From assembly GCA_023396915.1 (NCBI GenBank), contig JAEWUV010000001.1, forward strand, positions 21,206 to 85,205: DNA of 64,000 bases. The letters run 5' to 3'. The stretch is from Candidatus Parcubacteria bacterium (GTDB lineage: Bacteria > Patescibacteriota > Microgenomatia > UBA12405). Positions 1,655 through 55,060 of this stretch are shown here, piece by piece. The notes under the pieces are model-generated. The model searched no databases, was not told the origin of the DNA, and saw nothing but the letters and a program-made list of their open reading frames with translations. The translations under genes and the position numbers were made by a program. The stretch's first letter is position 1. Each line of letters begins with the position of its first letter.

Positions 1655-4618
1655 TCATTTCCCCAACACCACTCCCATCTTCACATCCTCATCCAGTTTC
1701 AAATTAAACAACACCTTCCCCCCCACAATACTTGCTGTCGGTTCAACTTGTAATGGTTGCCAACTCTCGGGATATGATATCAGACTCACCAAACTCGTTT
1801 CTCCAGTCCCTGGCTGTTTTTGAATATACTTCATATAAGTAAACTCCTTCCCCGCACCAAAATCAAAATTACTATTGTATTTCACTTCTAAAATTCTTTT
1901 CTTCAAAACCGGTACTGTCATCAAAAACCCTACCTCTTTTTTCCCATCAACCTCCTTAATATTTATTTCGCTATTAACATAAACTTTTTTAACTGAAGTA
2001 TCATATCCATCAGCCACACTAATTTGACTTAATTCCACCTCTTTTGGCAAATAAATTCTCACATAATTCTTATAATCTCCTCCTGGCCAATTATCATTTT
2101 TAGCTGTATTTTCATAAGTCACCCGAATTGTTCTGTTTAAACTCGACTGAGTAATTTCGGTTACTTCTTCAATCCCCTTTTGAATAAAATAATTTGCCTT
2201 ATTTACACCTAAATTTGCTTCAACTAAATACCAAAAATCAGGGACACAATTTTCCCGAGCACATTTTCCATTATAAATTTTCCCATCCCATCCCAAATCA
2301 TTAATTTTCTTGGCCAAACCACTATTATTAACCGCTATCTGAATCTCATTTTTTTGAAGCAAGTCCAACATCGAATCAACCAATAACCCCATTTTTTCTA
2401 TATTTAAATTTTTAATTTCCTCAAACATCTGAGCCCCTAGCCCTCCCAAGAAACTCGCCTTTTGCACCGACCCTGGAAAAAATTTAGTCTCAGCATAAAA
2501 CTCTGCCTGTTCATAAAGATTGTCAGCCGATATTTTTTCATCAAAATCAGGTACGTGAACTTCCCCTATTACCCCCAACATCGACTTAGCCACCGCCAAA
2601 TCAATCCCTATAATTCCATCAACCTTCTGTCCTGTTTCTTTTTCCAAAAACCACTGAATGTCAGCCCCTGTCTTCACAAAATCCGCCTTCCAGTTAGCAT
2701 CTCTCATATACCAATTTGCCTCATTTAAATGACTTTTAATTTCCCAAGGAGGTTCTACATGACCCTCCAATTGACCATCTGCTTCATAAACATCTTTAAT
2801 TTTAAACTCTGTCAATTTTCCACCCTTAAAAGTTATCAACCCATAACTACCAATAAACCCTCCTGTCGGCCTCAACTCCGACTCGTTTTGAAATAAAATC
2901 ATATATTTTCTTTCCTTACCGTCTACCCCCAAAAATTCTGGCAATAAATTAACTGTCTCTTTCCCCAAAGTAATCTTCACCCTAGTCTCATCCAAAACTT
3001 TTTCACCTTTCTGCAAAGACGACCTCCAACCAGCCGGCAACCAACTATAATCCCCTGATAATCTCGCTTGTAATAAACCAATATTATTTTCTATGTCCCC
3101 AATTCCTGTTTTTAGTATATCCAATTCCGTTGTCCAGTCTATCTGATTTCCCTTAAAAATAGCATTATTAATTTCTTCTGCCGCTTTAACTGTTGTTGGT
3201 AAACTTTTTTCTAAAATCAAAAAATCCATCAAAACTTTTAACCCACTTTGATAATTTCTCCCTAAAACAAAACTATTTAAACCCAATTCGCTTATTCTAG
3301 TATCAATCTCCTCTAATCCTTTAAGTCTTTTATCTGCCAAAATCTCAACCTGATTATATTTTTTATCCTTTATCAATTCCGGTATTTCTTTAACACTCCT
3401 CATAGCTCTATTTGTCACCCAACCCCATCTCATTGGTTCAAACAACAAAACTATTAAAAAACACACTACTATCACCCACCAATATCTCCACCCTTTCCAC
3501 CTTTTTTGTTTCTTTACCTTTTTCTCATTCTTTGTCTCACCAAAGATTTCAGCGACAGCGGCCTCCTCACTTTCCTCTTCAATATAATCTTTTTCCTTTG
3601 TCTCCTTTGTCTCCTTTTTCCCTATCAACCTTGGTAAATCAAAATCGTCACTTTTTTCCTCATAAACTACCATTTTTGGTTCTACCTTCTCCTTTTCTTC
3701 GATTTTTTCCTTTGTCTCACCAAAACTTTCAACGAAAGTGGGTTTTTCCTCTACCATCTCATTTTCCTCAACTAAAATATCAAATAATTTTTCATGTGTA
3801 TCCTTTTTTATTTTTTCTTCCATTTTTTTATCCTGAGCTTGTCGAAGGACACTTGCTGTTTTTCGTCTATTCTCTTCATCCATTAAAGAAAAAAAATACT
3901 GCAAAGTTCCATCAATTCCTTTATTAAAATCCATTTCTGCTTTCCAACGTAATTGTCTTTCACTTTCATCAGCTAATTTTTCATTCCCTTGATTAATTTC
4001 TTGATTAACTTCCATCACTTTAAATCTCGTCATTTTTGCCTTATCCATCAAAACCTTAGCTAGTTGTTCAAAGGTTATCTCTTTGCCTAAAAGTAAAAAA
4101 TATTCATTAGCCGTCCCCGACAAAAAACAAGCTCTTAAAATAGCTTCCACTAAATCACTTACAGCCAATAATCTAATTGTTTTACCGGCTTCAGGTAGCT
4201 CTAAATTCTTATTTCGCACCGCCTCTTTTATAACCTTAGACAAAAAATTATTTTCACCCATTCTTTCTCCATAAACACCCAAAGCCTCTACAATTCGCCA
4301 ATCTCTATCCAAAGTAGTTGCTTCCCGACTCAAATAACTTTTTCTCGTTTCATTGTCCACTGAAACCAAAACCAGTTTCTCTCCTTTAATTTTCCCCCAA
4401 TCGTTTTTATCGCCATAGAAATCAAAAACATAATCAAATTCCCCCTCAACTTCATCCAAATTCATTGCCCATTCAAAATTTTTTAAATCAGACAATCCAT
4501 TTATCATCTCTCCCACCCCAACCACATGAATATCTTTTTCTACCAATTCTTCCGCCAATTTTTTTGCCACAAAATGATCAATTCCCAAAATTAATGCTGT
4601 TGGAACCCCATGACTCAT
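1655..4618 (-). CDS. Large membrane-anchored protein with an N-terminal Rossmann/epimerase-like domain, an E/K-rich low-complexity linker, one TM segment and a C-terminal DUF4012-like domain.
   Basis: N-terminus ALILGIDHFVAKKLAEELVEKDIHVVGVG is a Rossmann-like motif. TM segment at WVIVVCFLIVLLF. C-terminal region contains LRPTGGFIGSYGLITF, characteristic of DUF4012. Two FGETK(E/N)(K/E)K repeats sit in the linker. Confidence 0.55.
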   Translation of the reverse strand: MSHGVPTALILGIDHFVAKKLAEELVEKDIHVVGVGEMINGLSDLKNFEWAMNLDEVEGEFDYVFDFYGDKNDWGKIKGEKLVLVSVDNETRKSYLSREATTLDRDWRIVEALGVYGERMGENNFLSKVIKEAVRNKNLELPEAGKTIRLLAVSDLVEAILRACFLSGTANEYFLLLGKEITFEQLAKVLMDKAKMTRFKVMEVNQEINQGNEKLADESERQLRWKAEMDFNKGIDGTLQYFFSLMDEENRRKTASVLRQAQDKKMEEKIKKDTHEKLFDILVEENEMVEEKPTFVESFGETKEKIEEKEKVEPKMVVYEEKSDDFDLPRLIGKKETKETKEKDYIEEESEEAAVAEIFGETKNEKKVKKQKRWKGWRYWWVIVVCFLIVLLFEPMRWGWVTNRAMRSVKEIPELIKDKKYNQVEILADKRLKGLEEIDTRISELGLNSFVLGRNYQSGLKVLMDFLILEKSLPTTVKAAEEINNAIFKGNQIDWTTELDILKTGIGDIENNIGLLQARLSGDYSWLPAGWRSSLQKGEKVLDETRVKITLGKETVNLLPEFLGVDGKERKYMILFQNESELRPTGGFIGSYGLITFKGGKLTEFKIKDVYEADGQLEGHVEPPWEIKSHLNEANWYMRDANWKADFVKTGADIQWFLEKETGQKVDGIIGIDLAVAKSMLGVIGEVHVPDFDEKISADNLYEQAEFYAETKFFPGSVQKASFLGGLGAQMFEEIKNLNIEKMGLLVDSMLDLLQKNEIQIAVNNSGLAKKINDLGWDGKIYNGKCARENCVPDFWYLVEANLGVNKANYFIQKGIEEVTEITQSSLNRTIRVTYENTAKNDNWPGGDYKNYVRIYLPKEVELSQISVADGYDTSVKKVYVNSEINIKEVDGKKEVGFLMTVPVLKKRILEVKYNSNFDFGAGKEFTYMKYIQKQPGTGETSLVSLISYPESWQPLQVEPTASIVGGKVLFNLKLDEDVKMGVVLGK

Positions 4619-5066: not shown

Positions 5067-6284
5067 CTACTTTCTCTTTACCAACATCCCTGTCATCAAC
5101 ACTACCGCTATCAATTCTGTCAAAACCGTTATCCAAGCCGCTCCATTAATTCCAAAAGAGGGGATTAATAATAAGTTCCCCCCAATATTTACCACCAAAG
5201 AAACTAGACCTACCAACAAAACCTGTTTTTGTTTTCCTAAAGCAATCAAAGTAAAACCCACTAAATGCCCCAAATAAGCAAATATCATCGCTACCAACAA
5301 AATTCTCAAAACCAATACTGATTTTTCAAATCCATTTCCAGACAATACCCCAATAATCCACGGCGCCAAAAAATAAACCACCCCAGACACCACTATTGCT
5401 CCTAGAAACATCAAAACCCCGGTTTGCCAAAAAAGTCTCTTTCTGTCGTTTTGCTTATTCGACAGCATTGGAAATACACTGTTAATCAAATAATATGCTG
5501 GCTGAACCAAGTTCCCATAAATTTTGTACGCCAAACCATAAAAAGCCAAATCTCTTACCCCGATCAACTGTTTAATCAAAATCGAATCTACCGCCCTGTC
5601 GTAACCAGAAAACAAAATCATATACACCCCCATCGGCCACGACTGTTTCAAAAAATTTACCCAAAAAGTTTTATTAGGTCTAACTAGTTTTAACCTACCC
5701 AAAAGTTTACCTGTTAAACCCAAACCAACCCCCAAGCTAATAATCCGGGCTATCAAATAAACCCCAAAAACTCCAATTAAATTAACTTGGGCTTGCCAAC
5801 CGAATAACCAAACCACAAATATTAATGGGAATAAAATATCTATCCATACTTTTAACTCCATTCTCATTTCTGTTTGAAAAATTATTTCCAAACTTCCAGC
5901 CACAGCCGTAAACCCAACCATCAACAAACCCATTAACGCCTCTATTTCTATCCCATCAAAACCACTCCACAGTAAAATTACTCCCAATCCTACCAAAAAC
6001 ATTAGTAGGGAAGCAAACAACCTAAACCAAGCCACCTGAATATAAATTTCTTTTCTTTTTTCTTCGCTTTCTTTTGCTGCCTCCCTAACCCCCATCACTT
6101 TAGTTCCAAAATCAGCTGCCGAATCCAACAGTAGCCACATTGAACCAATCAACATATAATTTCCATAAACTTCCACCCCCAATTTTCTGGTCAAAATCGC
6201 TGTTGTTACCAAACTCAAACCCACAGTAATACATTTCCCCAACACTTGTACCAAGGTGTTCCAAATCGGTTTCTTCATCAACAT
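5067..6284 (-). CDS. Polysaccharide biosynthesis protein / oligosaccharide flippase (Wzx-like, MOP superfamily).
   Basis: Polytopic membrane protein. N-terminus LGKCITVGLSLVTTAILTRKLGVEVYGNYMLIGSMWLLLDSAADFG is typical of Wzx/PST-family flippases. Confidence 0.6.
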   Translation of the reverse strand: MLMKKPIWNTLVQVLGKCITVGLSLVTTAILTRKLGVEVYGNYMLIGSMWLLLDSAADFGTKVMGVREAAKESEEKRKEIYIQVAWFRLFASLLMFLVGLGVILLWSGFDGIEIEALMGLLMVGFTAVAGSLEIIFQTEMRMELKVWIDILFPLIFVVWLFGWQAQVNLIGVFGVYLIARIISLGVGLGLTGKLLGRLKLVRPNKTFWVNFLKQSWPMGVYMILFSGYDRAVDSILIKQLIGVRDLAFYGLAYKIYGNLVQPAYYLINSVFPMLSNKQNDRKRLFWQTGVLMFLGAIVVSGVVYFLAPWIIGVLSGNGFEKSVLVLRILLVAMIFAYLGHLVGFTLIALGKQKQVLLVGLVSLVVNIGGNLLLIPSFGINGAAWITVLTELIAVVLMTGMLVKRK

Positions 6285-6418: not shown

Positions 6419-7690
6419 TTAAACCAGTGCTAATACCAAAGACAACAGCCACATGTTCTGGGGTAGGGTAAACCAATAATGATCTACCATCCCACTCATA
6501 AAAATTACCCCCAATACCACCCAACTCCATTTACCCAAGTCTCCCCATTTAATCTTTTTAGCCAATAACAAAATTGTTCCCATTAATCCCAAAATTCCTA
6601 CCTCTGACACCAAAAGCAAAAATATATTATGTACCGGTTGTAACCAAAAAGTATGGTTATTTTTTAAAACATTAGGCAAATTAGCCAAATAATTTCCCAG
6701 CCCTACTCCTACCCAAGGTGATTGTCGAATCATTTCTATTGCCGCTAAATTTAATTGACCTCTTTTGATCATTCCATTCTCATCCCACCCACCAAAAAAA
6801 TTACCCAAAGGATAATTAAAATCAACCAATTTTAATAAAAACAAAATTAAAATTAATCCCAATACTACAAATTTAATTTTATTTCTGATTTTCCAATCAT
6901 TTTGCCAAAACCAAAAACACATTACTCCCAAAGTTAAAAACCAAATTGTTCTACTTCCAGTCAAAAATATTCCCATCAATCCCAACCAAAATACCCCCCA
7001 CCATTTAATTTTTTCTAAGACTGCTCCCTTTTTTAAGGGGAGCTGTCCCGATTTATCGGGACTGAGAGGTTTGTTCCTTATCCACCACACCAACCCCACT
7101 AACAAAAAACCAGCCAAACTATTCGGGTGAGAAAAAGTTCCATAAGCCCTTACTAAACCTGTATTAACCACTGACATTTGAGCAATTCCTATTGTATTAA
7201 AATCAAATCTTCTTTCACCCAAAAACCACCACAAACCATTCAAACTTCCACCTTTAGATATTTGTCCCAATGCTAAAAGTGACTCAAGTATTATCCAATA
7301 GGGAATAACTTTAATCATAATATCTCCAACAATTCTCTTATTTTTTACTACCCAAAACCAAAAATAACCCAATTCCACCACTCTCAACCACTTATAAACC
7401 GCCACCCATTTATTAATCGACACTAAAATATTTATCCCCACAAAAACTAATCCCAATAAACACCAAAAACTAACCTCCCATTTCCTCTTCTTACTTTCTG
7501 CCAACAAATTAGTTATTAACCAAAGTACAAAGACTAAATCTACTAAATAAAAAGTCGGTGAAAAATAATCAATCCTTATTCCCAACACTGTCGACCAATC
7601 AAACCAAAAATGTTTTCCCAATTGTGTTGGAATTAACAAAATCAACCAAAACAACAAAATTTTTGTCACCTTACCCCAAAATCCTTTCAC
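6419..7690 (-). CDS. O-antigen ligase/polymerase-like (Wzy_C family) membrane protein carrying an in-frame hairpin-repeat insertion.
   Basis: C-terminal motif PVHNIFLLLVSEVGILGLMG (H-N...E.G..G) is typical of the O-antigen ligase family. Polytopic. Residues RNKPLSPDKSGQLPLKKGAV are encoded by repeat copy B at 7021-7077. Confidence 0.6.
   Translation of the reverse strand: MKGFWGKVTKILLFWLILLIPTQLGKHFWFDWSTVLGIRIDYFSPTFYLVDLVFVLWLITNLLAESKKRKWEVSFWCLLGLVFVGINILVSINKWVAVYKWLRVVELGYFWFWVVKNKRIVGDIMIKVIPYWIILESLLALGQISKGGSLNGLWWFLGERRFDFNTIGIAQMSVVNTGLVRAYGTFSHPNSLAGFLLVGLVWWIRNKPLSPDKSGQLPLKKGAVLEKIKWWGVFWLGLMGIFLTGSRTIWFLTLGVMCFWFWQNDWKIRNKIKFVVLGLILILFLLKLVDFNYPLGNFFGGWDENGMIKRGQLNLAAIEMIRQSPWVGVGLGNYLANLPNVLKNNHTFWLQPVHNIFLLLVSEVGILGLMGTILLLAKKIKWGDLGKWSWVVLGVIFMSGMVDHYWFTLPQNMWLLSLVLALV
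7021..7077. repeat. Composite GC-hairpin element, copy B (ctgctcccttttttaaggggagctGTCCCGATttaTCGGGACtgagaggtttgttcc), in frame inside the ligase-like CDS.
   Basis: First 27 nt are identical to copy A at 1105. The second hairpin CCCGAT-tta-ATCGGG is shared with the copies at 25641 and 19314. Confidence 0.7.
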
Positions 7691-25640: not shown

Positions 25641-25693
25641 AGCCTCCTTTTTTAAGGGAGGTCCCGATTTATCGGGGGTGGGTTTAATTTTCC
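25641..25693. repeat. Composite GC-hairpin element, copy C (agCCTCCttttttaaGGGAGGTCCCGATttATCGGGggtgggtttaattttcc), between mutM and the iscRS fusion.
   Basis: Two consecutive hairpins followed by the gggtgggtttaatt tail. May act as the mutM terminator and/or the isc leader. Confidence 0.65.
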
Positions 25694-25758
25694 TCATTGA
25701 CACATTTTTATTTTTTTAATAAAATCAATTCGGACAAGTTTAGTCCGATATAAACTAA

Positions 25759-27282
25759 ATGAAGTTATCTACTAAATCTCGTTATGCGCTTCGCGCTTTG
25801 GCCAACCTAATGGATCAAGGTTGTTGTTGCTCCGTCAAAAAAATTGCCCAAAATGAACATTTACCCTCTGATTATCTTGAAAAAATTTTTGCCAAACTAA
25901 AAAAAGTTGGAGTTCTTGAAGTCGAAAGAGGTGCGTCTGGCGGTTATATGCTTTCTCGTGACCCCAAAGATATTTCTCTAAAAGAGATTATTACCGCCCT
26001 AGAAAAACCGGAGTTTTCTTGCCCTGACGTCTGTCAGTGTCACACCAAAAATCTTTACCAACAAATTCAAACTGGATTTAATCAAGTTCTTAGTTCAATT
26101 AGTCTAGACTCTGTCGGTGATTCCAATAAAACAGTTTATTTAGATTATGCCGCCTCCACTCCAGTTGACCCCCAAGTTGTTTCCACTTTAGTTTCATATT
26201 TAAACCCTAAATACTCCGGTAATTCTTCTTCTCTTCATCAATTTGGTCTAAATGCGGCCCAGGTAGTCGAGGACAGTCGTACTGTTTTTGCTAAGATTTT
26301 AAATGCCAAAGAAGAGGAAATAGTTTTTACTTCTTCAGCTACCGAATCCAACAACACGGTTTTAAAAGGTGTTGCTTGGGCCAACTCTAAAAAAGGCAAA
26401 CACATTATAATTTCCAGTATTGAGCATGATTGTGTCAGAAATTCAGCCCAATGGTTAAAAACCCAAGGTTTTGAGATTACTCAAATTCCAGTAAATCAGC
26501 AAGGCTTTGTTGATATAGATTTTATAAAGTCCAGTATTCGTCCCGACACTGTTTTGGTTTCTGTCATTCATGGCAATAACGAAATTGGTACTGTTCAGGA
26601 TATCCGAAAAATCGGTGAAATTTGTCATAAACATGGAGCTTATTTCCATACAGATGCCGCTCAAAGTTTTTCAAAACTACCTATTGATGTCCAAAAAGAT
26701 AATATCGATTTTTTAACTATTTCCTCTCAAAAAATTTATGGCCCAAAAGGAGTTGCTCTTTTATATGTCAAATCTGGCTCAAAAATTACTCCACTACTTC
26801 ATGGTGGTGGTCATGAGTTTGGAATTCGTTCTTCCACGGTCAATGTGCCTTTAATCGCCGCCTTTACCAAGGCCGCCCAAATTGCTATTGATTCTATGGA
26901 TTCGGAGAACAAACGACTTACTCAACTTCGCGATTATCTTATTAAAAATATTTTAACCAAAATCCCAGATACTCATTTAAACGGTTCCGTCAAAAATCGT
27001 CTTTGTAATAATATCAATATTTCTTTTGACAAGATTGAAGGAGAGTCAATTTTACTTGATCTCGACATGAATGGCATTATTTGTTCTACTGGTTCCGCTT
27101 GCTCTTCACATTCTTTAGAACCAAGTCATGTTTTATTGGCTCTAGGCCAAAAACCAGAACAAGCCCACAGTTCCATTCGTTTTAGTCTTGGTCGTTTTAC
27201 TACCAAAGCCGATTTAGATTATTTGTTAAAAATTTTGCCTCAAACTATCAAAAAATTAAGGCAACTTTCACCCTTTAAATAA
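25759..27282 (+). CDS. iscS: Fusion protein: Rrf2/IscR-family transcriptional regulator (N-terminal, about 120 aa) plus cysteine desulfurase IscS/NifS (C-terminal).
   Basis: N-terminus MKLSTKSRYALRALANLM...GASGGYMLSRDP (Rrf2 HTH) and CPDVCQCH (3 Cys + His). Then VYLDYAASTPVDPQV...HGNNEIGTVQD...SSQKIYGPKGVALLYVK...STGSACSS (class V aminotransferase/IscS). Single continuous ORF. Confidence 0.8.
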   Translation: MKLSTKSRYALRALANLMDQGCCCSVKKIAQNEHLPSDYLEKIFAKLKKVGVLEVERGASGGYMLSRDPKDISLKEIITALEKPEFSCPDVCQCHTKNLYQQIQTGFNQVLSSISLDSVGDSNKTVYLDYAASTPVDPQVVSTLVSYLNPKYSGNSSSLHQFGLNAAQVVEDSRTVFAKILNAKEEEIVFTSSATESNNTVLKGVAWANSKKGKHIIISSIEHDCVRNSAQWLKTQGFEITQIPVNQQGFVDIDFIKSSIRPDTVLVSVIHGNNEIGTVQDIRKIGEICHKHGAYFHTDAAQSFSKLPIDVQKDNIDFLTISSQKIYGPKGVALLYVKSGSKITPLLHGGGHEFGIRSSTVNVPLIAAFTKAAQIAIDSMDSENKRLTQLRDYLIKNILTKIPDTHLNGSVKNRLCNNINISFDKIEGESILLDLDMNGIICSTGSACSSHSLEPSHVLLALGQKPEQAHSSIRFSLGRFTTKADLDYLLKILPQTIKKLRQLSPFK

Positions 27283-27283
27283 T

Positions 27284-27760
27284 ATGGCTCAACCCGTCGG
27301 TTATTCCAAAAAAGTTTTAGAACATTTCAGAAATCCACATAATTTTGGGGTTATTAAAAATGCCACTACTGTTGGCCAAGTAGGGAACCCCGCTTGTGGT
27401 GATGTTATGAAACTTTATTTAAAAATTGACAAAAATAAACAAGGTCAAGATTTTATTAAGGATGTTAAATTTGAAACCATGGGTTGTGCTGCCGCCATTG
27501 CCACCAGTAGTGTTGTTACCGATTTAGCTTTTAGTAAGACCATAGAAGATGCTCTAAAGTTGGACAATAAAGATGTTATCGAGGCGCTCGAATATCTTCC
27601 CGATATCAAGATTCATTGTTCTCTTTTAGCCATCGATGCTCTAAACGAAGCTATTTTTAATTATTACCAACAAATTAAACATTCCATTTCAGAGTCTCTT
27701 CAAAAGAAACACGATAGAATTACTGTTTGTCAAGCTAGGCTCCATGACCAACATCGATAA
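27284..27760 (+). CDS. iscU: Fe-S cluster assembly scaffold IscU/NifU-like, with a C-terminal extension.
   Basis: Three conserved Cys: GNPACGDVMKL, GCAAAIATSS, IHCSLLA. Confidence 0.88.
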   Translation: MAQPVGYSKKVLEHFRNPHNFGVIKNATTVGQVGNPACGDVMKLYLKIDKNKQGQDFIKDVKFETMGCAAAIATSSVVTDLAFSKTIEDALKLDNKDVIEALEYLPDIKIHCSLLAIDALNEAIFNYYQQIKHSISESLQKKHDRITVCQARLHDQHR

Positions 27761-28817
27761 ATTTTCTTGCCCAGATTGCCATCCTCAAAAGAAATCTAAC
27801 CTATTGTTTTTGGTTATTTTTATAGTTCTAGTTTTTTTCTTTTTTATCTTCAATCAATTTAATCTTCTTCCGTTACTTAGTCTTGATTTTCAAAGTTCTC
27901 TCCCTTTATTTTTTCTTCTGGGTGTTTTAGCCAGCCTTTCCAGTTGTAGCGCTATTATTGGCGGCCTATTGCTTTCAATTTCTAAAAATTGGTTGGATTT
28001 TAAATCACATTTATTTTTCAATTTATCCAGAATTATCACTTTTGTCCTTCTAGGTGGATTACTTGGACTAATTGGTTCTTTTATTAATATTTCTTCCTCA
28101 GTTTTTCCAATCATAATTACTACTATTTCCTTAATTATGATTTACTCTTCTTTACCACTTTTAGGGATTAACCTTCCAAAAATTTCTTTTCTCCCCAAAA
28201 AGTTTCTTAACAAAACATTTTCTCAAAATCTTTCACCAATTATTTTTGGTATTTTAACCTTTCTTCTCCCTTGTGGTTTTACTTTTACCGCCCAAAGTTC
28301 TGCTTTAATTTCAGCCAATCCGCTTAGAGGTTCTCTTATTCTTCTCTTCTTTGTTCTGGGTACTACCCCCAGTCTTTTATTAATCGGTTTTTTTAGTTCC
28401 AAACTTTTCAAAAACCCTGCTCTTTCTAAAAAATTTTCTCTTTTAGCTGGCTTTCTTATATTATTTTTCGCCTTATCCAACATTTTTATTCAGGCCAAAA
28501 ATCTATTCCCATCAAAAAACAGTTCATCGGTTGTCATCTCCGATCAAAAACAAATTATCAATATGACCGTGACCAACTCTGCTTATTCCCCCAGTTATTT
28601 TGAAGTCAAAACCAACACTCCAATTGTCTGGCAAATTACCCCAAAAGGTATTACTAGCTGTACCACCACTTTAGTCTCACCTTTAATTTTGGATAAACCA
28701 ATTAATCTTTCACCTTTTCAAAGTACAACCGTTGAATTTACTATCAAAAAGCCAGGAACATATAGTTTTTTCTGTTCTATGGGGATGGTTACTGGAATTA
28801 TCAAAGCAGTCGACTGA
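27744..28817 (+). CDS. Membrane protein with an N-terminal CxxC, a TauE/DsbD_2-like TM domain and a C-terminal cupredoxin-like domain. Putative metal handling.
   Basis: FSCPDCHP, LLGGLLGLIGS...LTFLLPCGFTF TM motifs. C-terminus TTVEFTIKKPGTYSFFCSMGM resembles cupredoxin-like domains, although His ligands are not evident. Confidence 0.45.
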   Translation: MTNIDKFSCPDCHPQKKSNLLFLVIFIVLVFFFFIFNQFNLLPLLSLDFQSSLPLFFLLGVLASLSSCSAIIGGLLLSISKNWLDFKSHLFFNLSRIITFVLLGGLLGLIGSFINISSSVFPIIITTISLIMIYSSLPLLGINLPKISFLPKKFLNKTFSQNLSPIIFGILTFLLPCGFTFTAQSSALISANPLRGSLILLFFVLGTTPSLLLIGFFSSKLFKNPALSKKFSLLAGFLILFFALSNIFIQAKNLFPSKNSSSVVISDQKQIINMTVTNSAYSPSYFEVKTNTPIVWQITPKGITSCTTTLVSPLILDKPINLSPFQSTTVEFTIKKPGTYSFFCSMGMVTGIIKAVD

Positions 28818-48487: not shown

Positions 48488-51400
48488 CTATTTTACATTT
48501 TCTTCTGTAATTTTAATTTCTTCCTCAATTTTTAAATATACTTTATCAATTCTAATTTGAATTTCTTTTGTTAATTTTAATACTGTCACCACCCTACAAT
48601 AATGTCGAATATCTTCATCTGATAAAGTTTTTTCCACCCTATCTTTAAGCCACTTATCTAATACTTGATATCCGCCAATATAATAATTCCAAATCTCAGG
48701 AGTAACATCATCAAAATATTGAGAATCATTTATATAAACACGATTGTTTTCTAGATCGTATTTTCTTTTGTTAACTTTTCCTTCTCCCTGACCAAAAAAT
48801 CTTGTAGAAGGGTTATCTAATTCTGATGAATTTAATAAATGTAGATTTATTAAATCTTCACCTAAAGAAGATAGTAATTGAAAAGTTTCTAAGTTTTCTG
48901 TAAAAGGAATCCTAGGAAAATCTATTTTTAAAAATTCTTTGTATTTCTCTCGATAGATATTTGAATAAAGAATCGCATAAATATAATAAAAAATTGCCTC
49001 ATTTGTTTGAATAAAATTACCTGATATTTTTGATGCGAATGATGGAACTTGTTGGATAAAATTTGGTAACTTTGACCAGTTGTAATTTGACGACCTAATT
49101 TTTGATTCCGACAACTCTTGTTGAGAACTGTAAATATAAAGTGGAAATGTATATGCCGAATCTTGAGCATTATCTAAATAATGAAAATCGGTTATGGTAT
49201 TTGTTATACCAAAATAATTTAAACTTAACTGACGGTTTCTTTTAGCAGATATTAATATCAAATTGTTCCGCATAAAAATATGTTTTGTAACTTCATTGCG
49301 TACTCTCCATATAGCAGATGGATGATTGAATATCCAACGATTATCAAATGGTCTATAACTGTAGTTTGAATAATATTTATTAATATTCTCAAGATTTTTT
49401 AATTTCAATTTTGTTTCAGGAATTCGTTCAGAATAAATCTTACTTAATTTAAAAGTATTTTTAATAAATTCATCATCACCAACACTGTTTATAAAACTAT
49501 TAATTTTTGTTTCGAGTTTATGTTTATCAAAATCAATCACAAAGTTATCATTCGCGGTTAGAATACCAGTACTATAAATATTAAAAATATCCGTTAAAGG
49601 TATAAACTTTTGGTATTTTTCATTACCTTCTTCATTTCTTGGAACTAAGAAATAATAAGGTTTAGATGGAATTAATTTTTGCCATTTTGTTGTTGTAATA
49701 TCATTTGATTCAAGCCATTTATATTTATCTTCACGTAAACCCCATTGATCACAATAGAATATTTGTTTAGTTTTAACAGGTGTCTTACATAATAAAACAA
49801 TAGATACTCCAGTTTGAATATCAAAAACATTTTCGTCTTTTTTACCTTCAGGTGTCTTTTCCTTTTTAAGGATACTACCGTGTAAATTAACAACATATAT
49901 TTCATTAAAAGTATTTAACATGGAATATCTCATACCACGGAAAGTTGGATTATCAAGCCAAGCATGATTAGTAATAAATCCTAAAATTCCCTGTTTATTT
50001 TGTTCAATCTTCCATTGAGAAAATCTGAAAAATTTTACATAATCATCTTGCAACCAATCTTTTTTTTCATTTAATTTTTCTCCCTCAATCTGGCGATATT
50101 CATTAATTTCCCCCAGTATCCAATCTCCTTTATTTGTAGAAACAGCTGAATAGGGTGGATTACCCATAATAACCATTACCTTTTTATTTTTTTTAACATC
50201 ATTAGCTTGACGAGATTCTTCTGATAAATCAGAAAATAATGGAAGATCCATGTGTGGAAGATTATTCAAATCAAGCGTATTAGTTAAAAAAAGATTAAAT
50301 CGTTCATACTGCCCTAATTTATATTTGTGTTCATCAAAAATCAAAGATGCTTTAATGTGTCCTAAAACATAAGGTGACATCATTAATTCAAAAGCAAAAA
50401 AATGAGGGATAATATGATTTTTTATCAAATTATTAATTCCTCCATCACCATATCTGTTTTTATATTCATCTATGGCTACTTTAATTGCTTCAATCGGAAA
50501 GGTTAATGTACCAGCAGCAGGATCAAGTAAAGTTACTGAATTACTAGCTAATCCATCCGGTCTTTTAAATTTTTTTTGAAGAATTTTATGAACTGAATTT
50601 ACTATATATTTAACTACTGGCTCCGGTGTGTAATATACTCCTCTTTTTGCCCTCTCTTTTGGATCATACTCAGCAAGAAAAGTTTCATAAAAATGGATAA
50701 TAGGATCATTACCCTTACCATTTAAATAATAATTATCAACAATCTTTGTAACATCCGTGTTTTTAAGTAATTCGGCAATATCGTCAATAATCCATTCCAT
50801 ATTTTTAGGTAAATCGTTAGATGAAATGAAACGAAATATGCTTCTTAAAACTCCAATTGTAGATGGAATAGTTTTAAAAGCATTTAAACGATTAAAATCT
50901 GATGATGATCGAAGACGAGCTGCGAATAAACCAAAAGTAATGGTTTGAGAAAACAAATTTGCAAAATCATCAAGATTTAAAGAGGATATTAAATATTCTT
51001 TGAACAGTTTATAAATTCCCTCAAGTGTTTGAGTTCCAGTTTGTGTTTCCTCTTTTAACTCCTCAATAATGCAGTTTTCTTTAAGAAAACTAGTTCTTTT
51101 AGCAAGTTCTATTGCTAAAGTTTTAGCTGTATTGATTTTTGGAGTAGAAAAAGAGAAAAATTCAGCTAATAACTTTTGGAGATATAACTCATTTTCTACC
51201 GGCGGAACAATCCCAAGCTGATTAAGGATAACAGGACGACCTATCATTACTTTATCTATTTGTTCTCCGTTGCGGTAAAGTCTAAATTCGAGAAAATTTG
51301 TCAAAATCAAATTAGGGAAAGTTTTAAGGTATCTTTGTAGTTGTTCTGTTTGTTCTATAGCGTCGAGGTTTTCAATATTTGGTTCTTTTGCTTCTATATA

Positions 51401-51607
51401 ACCAATAAGTTGATATTTCTGAGTTTGAATTCTGAAATCAGGATTTCCTGCTTCAGTTTTTTTAGGCAAAATAGTTACACTAATTTCTTTTTTATTTTGG
51501 ATTGCATAAGCCTCAATTAATTTTTTCAGATCTGGGTAATAACTTTCTTCACGAACATCTCCAGCGTTAGTAGTCGCAGACAAATCAGATAAATATTCTT
51601 TAAACAT
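48488..51607 (-). CDS. MmeI-like type IIL/IIG restriction-modification enzyme: N-terminal PD-ExK nuclease, gamma-class N6-adenine methyltransferase, C-terminal target-recognition region.
   Basis: NPDFRIQ...GYIEAKEP (PD...ExK), MTase motif I LLDPAAGTLTF, motif IV MGNPPYS. 1039 aa. Very AT-rich codon usage. Confidence 0.75.
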   Translation of the reverse strand: MFKEYLSDLSATTNAGDVREESYYPDLKKLIEAYAIQNKKEISVTILPKKTEAGNPDFRIQTQKYQLIGYIEAKEPNIENLDAIEQTEQLQRYLKTFPNLILTNFLEFRLYRNGEQIDKVMIGRPVILNQLGIVPPVENELYLQKLLAEFFSFSTPKINTAKTLAIELAKRTSFLKENCIIEELKEETQTGTQTLEGIYKLFKEYLISSLNLDDFANLFSQTITFGLFAARLRSSSDFNRLNAFKTIPSTIGVLRSIFRFISSNDLPKNMEWIIDDIAELLKNTDVTKIVDNYYLNGKGNDPIIHFYETFLAEYDPKERAKRGVYYTPEPVVKYIVNSVHKILQKKFKRPDGLASNSVTLLDPAAGTLTFPIEAIKVAIDEYKNRYGDGGINNLIKNHIIPHFFAFELMMSPYVLGHIKASLIFDEHKYKLGQYERFNLFLTNTLDLNNLPHMDLPLFSDLSEESRQANDVKKNKKVMVIMGNPPYSAVSTNKGDWILGEINEYRQIEGEKLNEKKDWLQDDYVKFFRFSQWKIEQNKQGILGFITNHAWLDNPTFRGMRYSMLNTFNEIYVVNLHGSILKKEKTPEGKKDENVFDIQTGVSIVLLCKTPVKTKQIFYCDQWGLREDKYKWLESNDITTTKWQKLIPSKPYYFLVPRNEEGNEKYQKFIPLTDIFNIYSTGILTANDNFVIDFDKHKLETKINSFINSVGDDEFIKNTFKLSKIYSERIPETKLKLKNLENINKYYSNYSYRPFDNRWIFNHPSAIWRVRNEVTKHIFMRNNLILISAKRNRQLSLNYFGITNTITDFHYLDNAQDSAYTFPLYIYSSQQELSESKIRSSNYNWSKLPNFIQQVPSFASKISGNFIQTNEAIFYYIYAILYSNIYREKYKEFLKIDFPRIPFTENLETFQLLSSLGEDLINLHLLNSSELDNPSTRFFGQGEGKVNKRKYDLENNRVYINDSQYFDDVTPEIWNYYIGGYQVLDKWLKDRVEKTLSDEDIRHYCRVVTVLKLTKEIQIRIDKVYLKIEEEIKITEENVK

Positions 51608-54535: not shown

Positions 54536-55060
54536 TTGGAATTTTACACATTTTTGCTACTATTAAATATGTCTCTTAAAATTAATCCAGATTATTTTCG
54601 CAGTATTGTTTTTGGTTGCCAAGATGCTTTGGTTTCTACCACCGGTGTTGTCGTTGGTATCAGTGTTGGTGTTCAAAATCGTCAATTTATTATTCTTTCG
54701 GGTTTAGTCACCATTGCCGTCGAAGCTTTGTCCATGGGTGTCGGCCAATATTTATCCGAAAAATCAGTTCATCAATTACCTGGAAGTAACCACAAAGACA
54801 ATTTAATTACCGGGGGAGTATTGATGTTTTTATTTTATCTTATCGGTGGTTTTGTCCCTCTTTTACCAATATTTTTTACTCTACCTCCATTTAGCTCACT
54901 TTTATCTGTTGCTTTTGCTTTTGTCGGTTTATTTACCTTAGGTTTTTTCAAAGCCAAATTATTTGCCAGTCATATTTGGCGCAGTGCTTTTGAAATGTTA
55001 GTCCTTGGTGGTTTAGCTACCTTAATTGGTCTGGCTGTCGGTCTTATTTTCAAAATTTAG
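54536..55060 (+). CDS. VIT1/CCC1-family (DUF125) metal transporter. Alternative start at 54569.
   Basis: GCQDALVSTTGVVVGIS...LSMGVGQYLSEKS signature. Confidence 0.65.
   Translation: MEFYTFLLLLNMSLKINPDYFRSIVFGCQDALVSTTGVVVGISVGVQNRQFIILSGLVTIAVEALSMGVGQYLSEKSVHQLPGSNHKDNLITGGVLMFLFYLIGGFVPLLPIFFTLPPFSSLLSVAFAFVGLFTLGFFKAKLFASHIWRSAFEMLVLGGLATLIGLAVGLIFKI

Follow-up and report, generated by a model that had tools for sequence, protein, structure and literature searches.

A single gene in this stretch of DNA joins an Rrf2 regulator domain to a type-I cysteine desulfurase in one polypeptide, and sequence comparison indicates that the fusion is a trait of a clade of tiny-genome (CPR) bacteria. 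With somewhat better than even confidence, we regard its product as a bifunctional, self-repressing IscR-like/IscS enzyme in which a desulfurase, a dyad-binding Rrf2 repressor and Fe-S-sensing feedback would be combined. The main coding features lie as follows within the window, by which we mean the whole 64-kb stretch that was analysed.

25759..27282, plus strand: fused gene for an Rrf2 regulator domain and a type-I cysteine desulfurase, 507 aa
25759..26115, plus strand: Rrf2 H-wHTH domain, aa 1-119 (Pfam, NCBIfam)
26098..26133, plus strand: junction, aa 114-125 (ISLDSVGDSNKT), where a natural Rrf2 C-terminus meets a natural desulfurase N-terminus with no added linker
26134..27279, plus strand: type-I (IscS/NifS-group) cysteine desulfurase domain, aa 126-507
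27284..27760, plus strand: IscU/NifU_N-type scaffold gene (NifU_N E 1.6e-42)

The ORF list gives an ATG-started frame at 25759..27282 on the plus strand with no stop and no frame change, and in Pfam aa 3-119 match Rrf2 with 98.7 bits, where the cutoff is 30 (E 3.9e-28), and aa 126-489 match Aminotran_5 (PF00266; E 3.7e-85). The uninterrupted frame and the profile matches bear out the first-pass annotation, which had described a single-ORF fusion of an Rrf2/IscR-type regulator with an IscS-type enzyme, and the Pfam boundaries agree with its estimate that about 120 aa of Rrf2 run into the IscS fold. Each of the three strings that it quoted is found in the ORF, with GCCCS at aa 21-25, CPDVCQCH at aa 88-95 (nt 26020-26043) and VYLDYAASTPVDPQV at aa 126-140. 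The junction at nt 26098-26133 contains no in-frame ATG, GTG or TTG, making a separate desulfurase start there impossible. PDB searches returned no entry covering both the Rrf2 and the desulfurase domains.

Because IscR and IscS are usually separate, and because the overlapping genes of related lineages would fuse by one indel, the fusion might be an artefact or pseudogene peculiar to this genome, produced by a sequencing or assembly error or by a very recent stop loss. We consider this exceedingly improbable. Gene calls on 15 contigs, all but one of them 50 kb or longer, give the identical protein, the in-frame junction is common to about 52 diverged protein clusters and 20 loci from independent projects, and the junction residues S113, L116, K124 and Y127 are conserved. 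Both halves are under strong purifying selection, with dN/dS of 0.03-0.24 for the Rrf2 half and 0.08-0.22 for the desulfurase half. The same architecture in about 52 clusters and on 15 contigs puts the fusion far beyond chance. The earlier suggestion of a lost stop codon or an assembly error thus fails for this genome, while as an account of evolutionary origin it appears to be essentially right. Stand-alone CPR Rrf2 proteins have their C-terminus no more than 5 residues from ‘TLxDL’, that is, at the fusion junction, and in a sister lineage a separate rrf2 (‘...SLASLIDEND*’) overlaps iscS (‘MKMTNNKQIYLDY’) by 14 nt. Since the sister lineage still has this overlap, the sequences point to a frameshift within such a 14-nt overlap as the event that joined two separate genes, rrf2 and iscS, an account that we take to be essentially correct.

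When related genomes were searched for the same fusion, as had been proposed, it was recovered repeatedly, in about 52 protein clusters with this architecture (61-91% identity, 100% coverage), in 20 sequenced loci and in three mis-annotated loci. Among the matches listed in the metagenome scan, with fusion status decided by domain HMMs on the fetched loci, an Rrf2-domain identity of at least 56% went with fusion in 18 of 18 judgeable loci (those holding enough gene sequence for a verdict), and all loci at 47% or below had separate genes. The three loci annotated as unfused are actually fused in frame, the gene caller having trimmed the N-domain. In the genome-contig scan, one of the 80 loci among the matches listed (L001) is truly fused; many matches described there as ‘1-215’ had looked like fusions and were rejected as separate neighbouring iscR-iscS genes, and three Dehalococcoidia loci (L058, L059 and L063) are unfused. 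When the Rrf2 half by itself served as the query, a homology search listed only stand-alone Rrf2 proteins (at most 44% identity) and one fragment, and the fused family went unlisted.

In public annotation the fused proteins are named only ‘cysteine desulfurase’, and the N-domain is trimmed in at least three genomes. Such annotation hides the fusion, and regulators in these phyla will therefore be counted too low when Fe-S regulation is surveyed across genomes.

Other Rrf2-desulfurase fusions were found in Clostridia (the P0246 family) and in P0251, P0260, P0268 and P0370. In a neighbour-joining tree without support values, the desulfurase halves of all five group with the unfused enzymes of their own lineages, and by this sequence-based grouping the fusions in Clostridia and other lineages are of independent origin. 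Their domain order is identical to that of the CPR protein, and P0246 has a promoter and a GACTA-like site upstream and NifU_N downstream; they differ in having a canonical Cys loop (C-x4-C-x5-C) and a longer linker. Independent repetition of the fusion, in Clostridia together with NifU_N, argues for a functional advantage. These proteins are uncharacterised and are annotated only as ‘cysteine desulfurase NifS’.

Type-I desulfurases carry their catalytic Cys in an SSGSACTS-like loop. The C-terminal half has the Aminotran_5 fold, the PLP-binding Lys and the catalytic Cys loop of this type, the two catalytic residues being encoded as follows.

26731-26733, plus strand: PLP Lys325
27100-27102, plus strand: catalytic Cys448 (STGSACSS)

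Along with His223, Asp299 and Gln302, both are invariant in 32 of 32 sequences. Among the NCBIfam models, the IscS-subfamily model NF002806 was passed (351.9 against 304), but the equivalog models fell below cutoff (NifS 484.2 against 530.75; IscS 442.2 against 548 and 430.8 against 643.2), which makes the domain a member of the NifS/IscS group assignable neither to NifS nor to IscS proper. Its best solved match is Archaeoglobus fulgidus IscS (4EB5/4R5F, E 3.5e-112), Foldseek gives TMt of 0.87-0.94 to IscS, NFS1 and NifS, and the fold matches IscS-IscU complexes. The scaffold ATG lies one base beyond the stop codon of the fused gene, and every orthologous locus, like the Clostridial fusion, has a NifU_N gene 3' of the fused one. 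No second desulfurase or second Rrf2 gene was found within the 64-kb window, and the 11.7-kb contig carrying the fused orthologue P0020 has no free Rrf2 gene beside it.

The Rrf2 half scores 94.0 with the superfamily model TIGR00738 (cutoff 73.3) and matches Pfam PF02082 likewise, placing it in the Rrf2 superfamily. It falls short of the IscR equivalog cutoffs (TIGR02010, 65.6 against 207.55 bits; NF008110, 44.3 against 275) and of that of the CymR model (NF047409, 76.1 bits against 195); among the named NCBIfam models, the N-domain scores best, after the superfamily model, with CymR, followed by IscR. The nearest solved structures are Thermincola potens IscR (4CIC, E 5e-16) and CymR (2Y75), and the AF2 secondary structure agrees with the Rrf2 H-wHTH assignment, including an equivalent of the dimerisation helix.

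26041..26097, plus strand: helix aa 95-113, Rrf2 dimerisation-helix equivalent (AF2), aligned with ‘TKSVWEKVKKSIEEVLDSITL’ of 4CIC and with the CymR helix

Rrf2 proteins and IscS are both obligate dimers, here linked by a junction of about 12 residues. The recognition helix S37-K49 (YLEKIF..KLKK), the wing-motif residues (L47-x3-G51-x6-G58-x2-G61G62-x2-L65) and R57 are invariant in 26 of 26 family members, as is Y63 beside R57, G58, G61 and G62. In characterised Rrf2 proteins, the Lx3Gx6Gx2GGx2L wing motif and an Arg (Arg59 of EcIscR, Arg60 of ScNsrR) contact DNA, the Arg in the minor groove (PMC9338935).

Upstream of the fused gene, we found a near-consensus promoter followed by a perfect dyad.

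25697..25725, plus strand: sigma-70-type promoter TTGACA-17-TAAAAT of the fused gene, 11/12 consensus matches
25730..25748, unstranded: candidate operator, perfect dyad TCGGAC-N7-GTCCGA, 5 nt past the -10 box
25727-25751: extended 25-mer dyad, AATTCGGACAAGTTTAGTCCGATAT

The TTGAC of the -35 box is invariant across 17 orthologous upstream regions, and the dyad, which begins 5 nt beyond the -10 box and hence overlaps the expected transcription start, is present upstream of every fused orthologue (20 of the 20 loci listed) while the flanks diverge. It occurs in one exact copy in the 64-kb window. In CPR relatives without the fusion, a related dyad lies ahead of the separate rrf2 gene, and promoter, dyad, rrf2 and iscS follow one another as in the fused loci; this common layout suggests that the fused domain inherited an autoregulatory role.

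Compared with the E. coli Type-1 consensus ATASYYGACTRWWWYAGTCRRSTAT, sister-subgroup dyads agree at 20-22 of 25 positions and are unique within their loci. The window dyad agrees at 17 of 25, which is the background level (78 sites are at least as good in this AT-rich DNA), and the name ‘Type-1 box’ was accordingly rejected for it and kept for the sister-subgroup version only. A second dyad-like site at 54741, with 2 mismatches, lies inside the ORF at 54536-55060 and is compatible with chance; the dyad search of the 64-kb window gave no basis for a regulon.

The conserved dyad might instead act as RNA, in the form of a 5' leader hairpin or a terminator, given that it could form a 6-bp stem with a 7-nt loop and that a consensus scan calls its minus strand terminator-like. 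This is very improbable: with the dyad starting 5 nt past the -10 box, the left arm would be mostly untranscribed, arm changes in L096 and L101 are one-sided and lack compensation, RNA beginning at the predicted start gains no folding stability over shuffled sequences (z -1.21), and no minus-strand gene ends at the dyad. In the second subgroup the -10 box itself lies within the dyad, which excludes an RNA hairpin there. The hairpin or terminator was therefore rejected on position, one-sided arm changes and folding, and we treat the dyad as a candidate operator.

It could also be supposed that the Rrf2 domain has left DNA altogether and been co-opted as a module of the enzyme, serving as a cluster or sulfur acceptor, as an IscU docking platform or as an allosteric brake. 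The sulfur acceptors TusA and rhodanese are fused to the same N-terminus in other lineages, which shows that partners of the catalytic loop can sit there; the Rrf2 domain is unusually rich in Cys, and a repressor present at the copy number of an enzyme would be odd. We judge such a role to be quite improbable, because the recognition helix, R57 and the wing glycines, which a non-DNA role would not need, are invariant throughout the family, and because a dyad of the Rrf2-operator type, inherited from free-Rrf2 lineages, stands at every fused promoter with no second Rrf2 protein encoded in the window or the 11.7-kb orthologous contig that could use it. Repression through the dyad by the fused domain is the reading that we retain.

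The Rrf2 half also has two cysteine loops.

25822..25830, plus strand: Cys22-Cys23-Cys24 loop between helices 1 and 2
26020..26040, plus strand: remodelled Cys loop C88-P-x-x-C92-x-C94, a candidate Fe-S or thiol sensor

In the first of these, Cys occupies each position in 21-22 of 26 members, the replacements being CRCS, CLCS, SRSS and QPCS, and in the alignment with Staphylococcus aureus CymR the loop falls on the Cys of ‘GQGCIS’. In the second, C88, C92 and C94 are invariant in all 26 members. The IscR cluster ligands are C92, C98, C104 and H107, spaced C-x5-C-x5-C-x2-H (PMC6599224). By comparison, the loop here is C-x3-C-x-C with no conserved His, residue 95 being Gln in 17 of 26 members and His in 6 of 26; the ‘3Cys+His’ ligand set read from this loop in the first-pass annotation does not hold, and the loop is unlike that of IscR. 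C88 and C94 correspond to the second and third canonical Cys with their C-x5-C spacing kept, the first canonical Cys has been lost through a deletion that leaves the loop about 10 residues shorter, and four Cys are seen in the intermediates L102 and P0052. We could assign no fourth ligand: His95 varies, and position 8, where NsrR and RsrR use Asp or Glu, is an invariant Arg. On this pattern of conservation, the most likely role of C88, C92 and C94 is to carry an Fe-S cluster acquired at the neighbouring assembly site.

Alternatively, the protein may be a CymR-like autorepressor whose signal is not Fe-S. DNA binding might then depend on whether the PLP enzyme joined to it has cysteine bound or carries a persulfide, like a covalent counterpart of CymR-CysK, or on oxidation or persulfidation of the Cys-rich loops (CCC and CPxxCxC). 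CymR outscores IscR on the N-domain (76 against 65.6 bits), CymR structures are among the top PDB matches, the CCC loop aligns with the ‘GQGCIS’ Cys, and the second loop is non-canonical and offers no assignable fourth ligand. There is also precedent, since Bacillus subtilis CymR binds DNA only when complexed with the PLP enzyme CysK in the presence of cysteine, and S. aureus CymR loses DNA binding when a surface Cys is oxidised (PMC9338935). Yet CymR has no three-Cys loop, whereas three Cys are invariant here and two of them keep the C-x5-C spacing inherited from three- or four-Cys ancestors; some members do without the CCC loop (SRSS, QPCS), the operon is one of Fe-S assembly (IscU) and not of cysteine biosynthesis, and the CymR model score lies far under its cutoff (76 against 195). 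We therefore see a CymR-like signal as rather unlikely, and continue with a cluster-sensing repressor as the preferred reading.

IscR-type feedback is a textbook mechanism of Fe-S homeostasis, in which the sensor behaves as a low-priority cluster client. In the version proposed here, the C-terminal 380 residues would form an active type-I cysteine desulfurase passing sulfur to the IscU scaffold encoded just downstream, and the N-terminal 120 residues a still functional Rrf2 winged-helix domain, whose dimer would bind TCGGAC-N7-GTCCGA over its own transcription start and repress the fused iscS-iscU operon. With clusters plentiful, the tethered sensor would be loaded and the operon off; under high cluster demand, the sensor would be empty and the operon on. 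Overall, this would amount to negative feedback of the IscR type exerted by a single polypeptide. We infer that the fused protein binds DNA at the dyad, represses the operon, takes its signal from cluster binding and is an active enzyme, and with this that it senses Fe-S. The earlier idea that the fusion tethers regulation to the enzyme is backed by its recurrence, by purifying selection, by the invariant residues and by the conserved promoter dyad. A bolder version, which we offer tentatively and would put well short of even, is a self-contained Fe-S homeostat, the sensor being supplied directly by the IscU-IscS site with a cluster or persulfide, either in cis or across the dimer in trans. 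If so, one polypeptide would make, sense and transcriptionally limit the Fe-S supply.

The fusion has arisen repeatedly and independently, in CPR bacteria, Clostridia and others, and ‘Rosetta-stone’ reasoning would lead one to expect free IscR-type regulators to bind physically to IscS/NifS in ordinary bacteria as well. Such docking, if true, would mean that IscR reads cluster demand through a step not recognised so far. A natural covalent regulator-desulfurase in a minimal two-gene system also offers a compact, purifiable model in which to ask whether sensor and assembly machinery work in physical contact. It would add one more ‘trigger enzyme’ (catalyst and transcription factor in one) in genome-reduced CPR bacteria with few regulators. 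A literature search for any description of an Rrf2-desulfurase fusion returned nothing relevant, and a one-protein feedback loop of this kind appears to be undescribed so far.

Several known systems resemble the fused protein in part. The closest solved relative of its N-domain, T. potens IscR (4CIC/4CHU), is a free protein with a canonical C-x4-8-C-x5-C loop. The stand-alone CPR Rrf2 proteins (about 130 aa) have the same promoter-dyad-rrf2-iscS layout and end exactly at the junction position, but are likewise free and canonical in their C-x4-8-C-x5-C loop; T. potens IscR and the stand-alone proteins alike show at most 47% identity to the fused domain. The MocR/GabR/PdxR regulators and the ‘trigger enzymes’ PutA and BirA are single proteins linking metabolite state to pathway transcription, and share with the fused protein a DNA-binding domain joined to a PLP-fold or metabolic enzyme domain. 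MocR-type proteins combine a GntR-type HTH with a catalytically degenerate aminotransferase class I/II-like domain, whereas the fused protein has an Rrf2 HTH and a class V PLP domain with intact desulfurase residues; the domain profile search found no GntR match in it, and the resemblance to MocR is by analogy only.

In the isc operon of E. coli and Pseudomonas aeruginosa, with its separate IscR and IscS, the Rrf2 gene similarly lies immediately 5' of the desulfurase and IscU genes, negative feedback comes from a dyad operator at its own promoter, and the dimerisation helix follows a three-Cys loop (PMC6599224). Here, by contrast, a single polypeptide contains both regulator and enzyme, a minimal operon consists of iscS-iscU alone, and the C92/C98/C104/H107 ligands of IscR are replaced by C-x3-C-x-C without a conserved His (PMC6599224). 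In B. subtilis CymR-CysK, an Rrf2 repressor likewise acts while bound physically to a PLP-dependent enzyme from cysteine and sulfur metabolism, and DNA binding is governed by the ligand state of the enzyme (PMC9338935). That coupling is non-covalent and involves a fold-type II O-acetylserine sulfhydrylase and a CymR lacking the Cys loop, whereas the fused protein has a covalent link, a fold-type I desulfurase and three invariant Cys.

The Rrf2 regulator and the cysteine desulfurase are encoded together, between an upstream promoter with a dyad and a downstream scaffold gene:

25697-25725, promoter TTGACA-17-TAAAAT, near-consensus (11/12 matches)
25730-25748, perfect dyad TCGGAC-N7-GTCCGA, beginning 5 nt past the promoter
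25759..27282, + strand, fused rrf2-desulfurase gene, one unbroken ORF of 507 aa
27284..27760, NifU_N/IscU-type scaffold gene, its ATG one base past the fused gene's stop codon

The single-ORF fusion proposed by the first-pass annotation, all of whose quoted sequence strings occur in the window, is borne out by Pfam, which assigns residues 3-119 to Rrf2 (E 3.9e-28) and residues 126-489 to Aminotran_5 (E 3.7e-85). Among NCBIfam models, the N-terminal part passes the Rrf2 superfamily cutoff and scores well under the IscR and CymR equivalog cutoffs; the C-terminal part falls in the NifS/IscS group, passing the IscS-subfamily model NF002806 and remaining under the NifS and IscS equivalog cutoffs. 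Reading the sequence, we found no in-frame ATG, GTG or TTG at residues 100-135, so a separate desulfurase cannot be initiated at the junction. An AlphaFold2 model (pLDDT 81, pTM 0.71) shows an H-wHTH, a long helix (95-113), a junction that is not helical, and the desulfurase fold, with low confidence in the Cys loop and very low confidence confined to the mobile catalytic loop (446-465). The desulfurase half matches Archaeoglobus fulgidus IscS in a search of solved structures (E 3.5e-112) and aligns with IscS, NFS1 and NifS structures at TMt 0.87-0.94; PDB searches found no solved structure spanning both Rrf2 and desulfurase.

An assembly error, or another artefact, can for practical purposes be dismissed. 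Gene calls on 15 contigs, 14 of which reach 50 kb or more, include the identical 507-aa protein, and the window itself is part of a 906,714-bp scaffold. Of the 120 best homologues, those numbered P0001-P0052 each have both Pfam domains, at 61-100% identity and 100% coverage, and were drawn from NCBI, JGI, ENA and Logan assemblies. Their named members are Candidatus Shapirobacteria and Woesebacteria, of the Microgenomates group of Patescibacteria. A metagenome scan with the Rrf2 half alone returned at least 80 loci, whose fusion status was judged by domain HMMs: every listed locus with Rrf2 identity of at least 56% and a gene complete enough to judge (L083-L099, L101) has a single fused ORF, and in all those listed at 47% or less, rrf2 is a gene of its own that in most cases abuts or overlaps the one for the desulfurase. 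Three further high-identity loci (L100, L110 and L115), whose contigs end inside the Rrf2 domain, were left out of the count.

Three seemingly unfused Shapirobacteria proteins of 388-400 aa (P0053, P0054 and P0056) lie in loci syntenic with the window, and the unannotated gap of about 400 nt upstream of each gene translates as a complete in-frame Rrf2 with no stop. The depositors' gene start is placed at an internal codon in these loci, so public annotation records the fusion less often than it occurs. In the NCBI records GCA_028685145.1, GCA_028710865.1 and GCA_028709405.1 (L163, L164 and L165; region about 2100-2500), the misplaced start, an internal ATT in L164, leaves the Rrf2 domain as an 'intergenic' gap. 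One 672-aa call, P0059, combines PF00814, Rrf2 and Aminotran_5, which may reflect a triple fusion or merging at the gene-calling step. A contig titled 'uncultured Gammaproteobacteria bacterium' (CAYUUU010000007.1, L001) bears a CPR-type fused gene, 63% identical over the query's first 215 residues, and a CPR-type operator; the MAG's taxonomic label looks doubtful.

Both halves are under purifying constraint: over ten orthologue pairs, Nei-Gojobori dN/dS spans 0.03-0.24 in Rrf2 and 0.08-0.22 in the desulfurase, values that are approximate given dS of 0.6-1.4, near saturation. The anatomy, conservation and selection of the fusion are matters of direct evidence. Invariant in 26 fused sequences are the recognition-helix segment Y39-L-E-K-I-F44 with L47-K-K49, and R57, G58, G61, G62 and Y63; PLP Lys325, catalytic Cys448 and the other active-site residues are invariant in 32 of 32 aligned desulfurases. 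The window sequence matches the Rrf2 wing motif Lx3Gx6Gx2GGx2L, and R57 is the equivalent of EcIscR Arg59 (+2 offset, alignment to 4HF0/4HF1); crystallography has identified both the motif and Arg59 as DNA contacts (PMC9338935).

The exact dyad occurs once in the 64 kb (a dyad-like match at 54741 has two mismatches, is intragenic and was rejected), and a dyad stands at the equivalent position in every fused orthologue. An alignment of 17 upstream regions averages 44% identity per column, its invariant positions being the -35 TTGAC plus half-sites CGGAC and TCC. The window's version, AATTCGGAC-N7-GTCCGAATT, directly follows the -10 box and scores 15-17/25 against the Escherichia coli IscR Type-1 consensus ATASYYGACTRWWWYAGTCRRSTAT (PMC6599224), which is background level; the version in a sister subgroup, ATATCGGACTAAAATAGTCC, encloses the -10 box TAAAAT and scores 20-22/25, the unique best match in each locus. 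The ATG in that subgroup (L089-L098, L001, L163) lies only about 5 nt past the dyad, and with the enclosed -10 box this suggests that its mRNA is probably leaderless or nearly so. Unfused CPR relatives carry AAAACCGAC-N7-GTCGGTTTT or CCGACTA-N3-TAGTCGG between the promoter and a separate rrf2, itself 5' of iscS, a related layout which argues that the autoregulatory arrangement is older than the fusion. That the dyad instead acts as an RNA hairpin is unlikely: its left arm is located at, or upstream of, the expected transcription start, the sister subgroup's dyad contains the -10 box, changes in the arms affect one side only, and the leader RNA folds no better than shuffles. Conservation of this candidate operator, together with the invariant DNA-contact residues, also makes an accessory role of the Rrf2 half away from DNA quite improbable.

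Several other features of the window stand out. Right after the fpg stop codon, the hairpin CCTCC-TTTTTTAA-GGGAGG (25643-25662) is probably the fpg terminator; a consensus scan did not report it. It precedes a 14-nt palindrome, CCCGATTTATCGGG, seen twice in the window (7047-7060 and 25663-25676), where shuffles predict none, and a single time in the orthologous, 63%-identical L001 locus, at the matching place after fpg (3900-3913). The palindrome may be a terminator or a small hairpin element that is repeated. Downstream, a 357-aa ORF (27744-28817, +) shares 17 nt with the end of iscU and encodes a DsbD_2 membrane domain (E 2.3e-26) and a C-terminal cupredoxin-like domain (E 3.6e-11); the source gene calls omit it for two short minus-strand ORFs (L081). 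It is missing from the syntenic L163-L165, where a 152-aa gene adjoins nifU, and may be a lineage-specific insertion tied to metal or redox handling. GC skew is negative across the window (1-64000) and becomes extreme, at -0.47 to -0.48, over the first 8 kb, which holds three large minus-strand ORFs (1655-4618, 5067-6284 and 6419-7690); GC content falls to 0.28 at 48-52 kb, coincident with a 1039-aa minus-strand ORF (48488-51607).

The '3Cys+His' ligand set read earlier from CPDVCQCH keeps its three cysteines (C88, C92 and C94, invariant in 26/26) and loses its His, the residue after C94 being Gln in 17 of 26. Stand-alone CPR Rrf2 relatives have the canonical loop C-x4-8-C-x5-C, and four Cys (C-x6/10-C-x3-C-x-C) occur in the closest unfused relative, L102, and in the early-branching fused P0052. 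In the main fused clade a deletion has shortened the loop by about 10 residues and removed the first Cys, leaving the second canonical (C88), an extra (C92) and the third canonical (C94). Three thiolate ligands thus appear conserved in a remodelled, putative cluster site; a fourth is not assignable, position 8 being an invariant Arg where NsrR has Asp8 (PMC5411485).

We consider it fairly probable that the fused protein is a bifunctional enzyme-repressor. Its desulfurase domain would partner with IscU, its Rrf2 domain would bind the promoter-overlapping dyad and repress its own two-gene operon, and the three-Cys site would signal Fe-S status much as in IscR, whose cluster-ligated form binds Type-1 sites and represses (PMC6599224). 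We infer here the enzyme activity, the binding to DNA and the kind of signal sensed. The main rival, which we regard as unlikely, keeps autorepression and makes the signal an enzyme ligand or persulfide state, or thiol oxidation, with precedents in CymR-CysK and in Staphylococcus aureus CymR, where oxidation of a surface thiol is reported to abolish DNA binding (PMC9338935). The CCC loop, the GCCCS noted as unusual, aligns to the Cys of 'GQGCIS' in that protein and varies among the 26 fused members (CRCS, CLCS, SRSS, QPCS). In the enzyme-repressor, the Rrf2 helix and the desulfurase core, each an obligate dimer interface, would have to be accommodated together across a junction of about 12 residues.

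Stand-alone CPR Rrf2 proteins terminate a few residues from 'TLxDLIK'. Where the two genes are separate, in the sister lineage (L166/L167), the Rrf2 product finishes with '...SLASLIDEND*', while the desulfurase starts 'MKMTNNKQIYLDY' in another frame with a 14-nt overlap; the window junction, '...SLDSVGDS-NKTVYLDY', reads as the expected product of a single frameshift in such an overlap, with natural termini and no added linker. Searched exhaustively, 1.84 billion representatives yielded full-length two-domain proteins besides the window's family (P0036) in P0246, P0251, P0268, P0260 and P0370, as well as desulfurases with N-terminal TusA (P0247), rhodanese (P0357) or HTH_3 (P0249). P0246 (526 aa; 1,875 members in its 90% cluster) stands at the head of a family of about 15 Clostridial clusters, is labelled 'cysteine desulfurase NifS', lies directly 5' of NifU_N and has a canonical Cys loop. 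A neighbour-joining tree of desulfurase halves, drawn without support values, places CPR fusions within CPR enzymes, Clostridial fusions among unfused Clostridial NifS, and P0260/P0268 near proteobacterial-type IscS, a grouping that indicates several independent fusions.

Database names for the fused proteins mention cysteine desulfurase only, and our literature searches, together with a 2026 review of Fe-S biogenesis, turned up no description of an Rrf2-desulfurase fusion. The fusion is not categorically new; it is a clean, recurrent and unstudied natural design through which physical coupling of an Fe-S sensor to the assembly machinery becomes directly testable. Its parts are textbook (an Rrf2/IscR-type repressor, a type-I desulfurase, IscU and a dyad operator), and what is new is their covalent union with the putative autoregulatory site retained. 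Since the N-terminal domain differs from IscR both by score and by ligand pattern, we describe it as IscR-like in function rather than as IscR.
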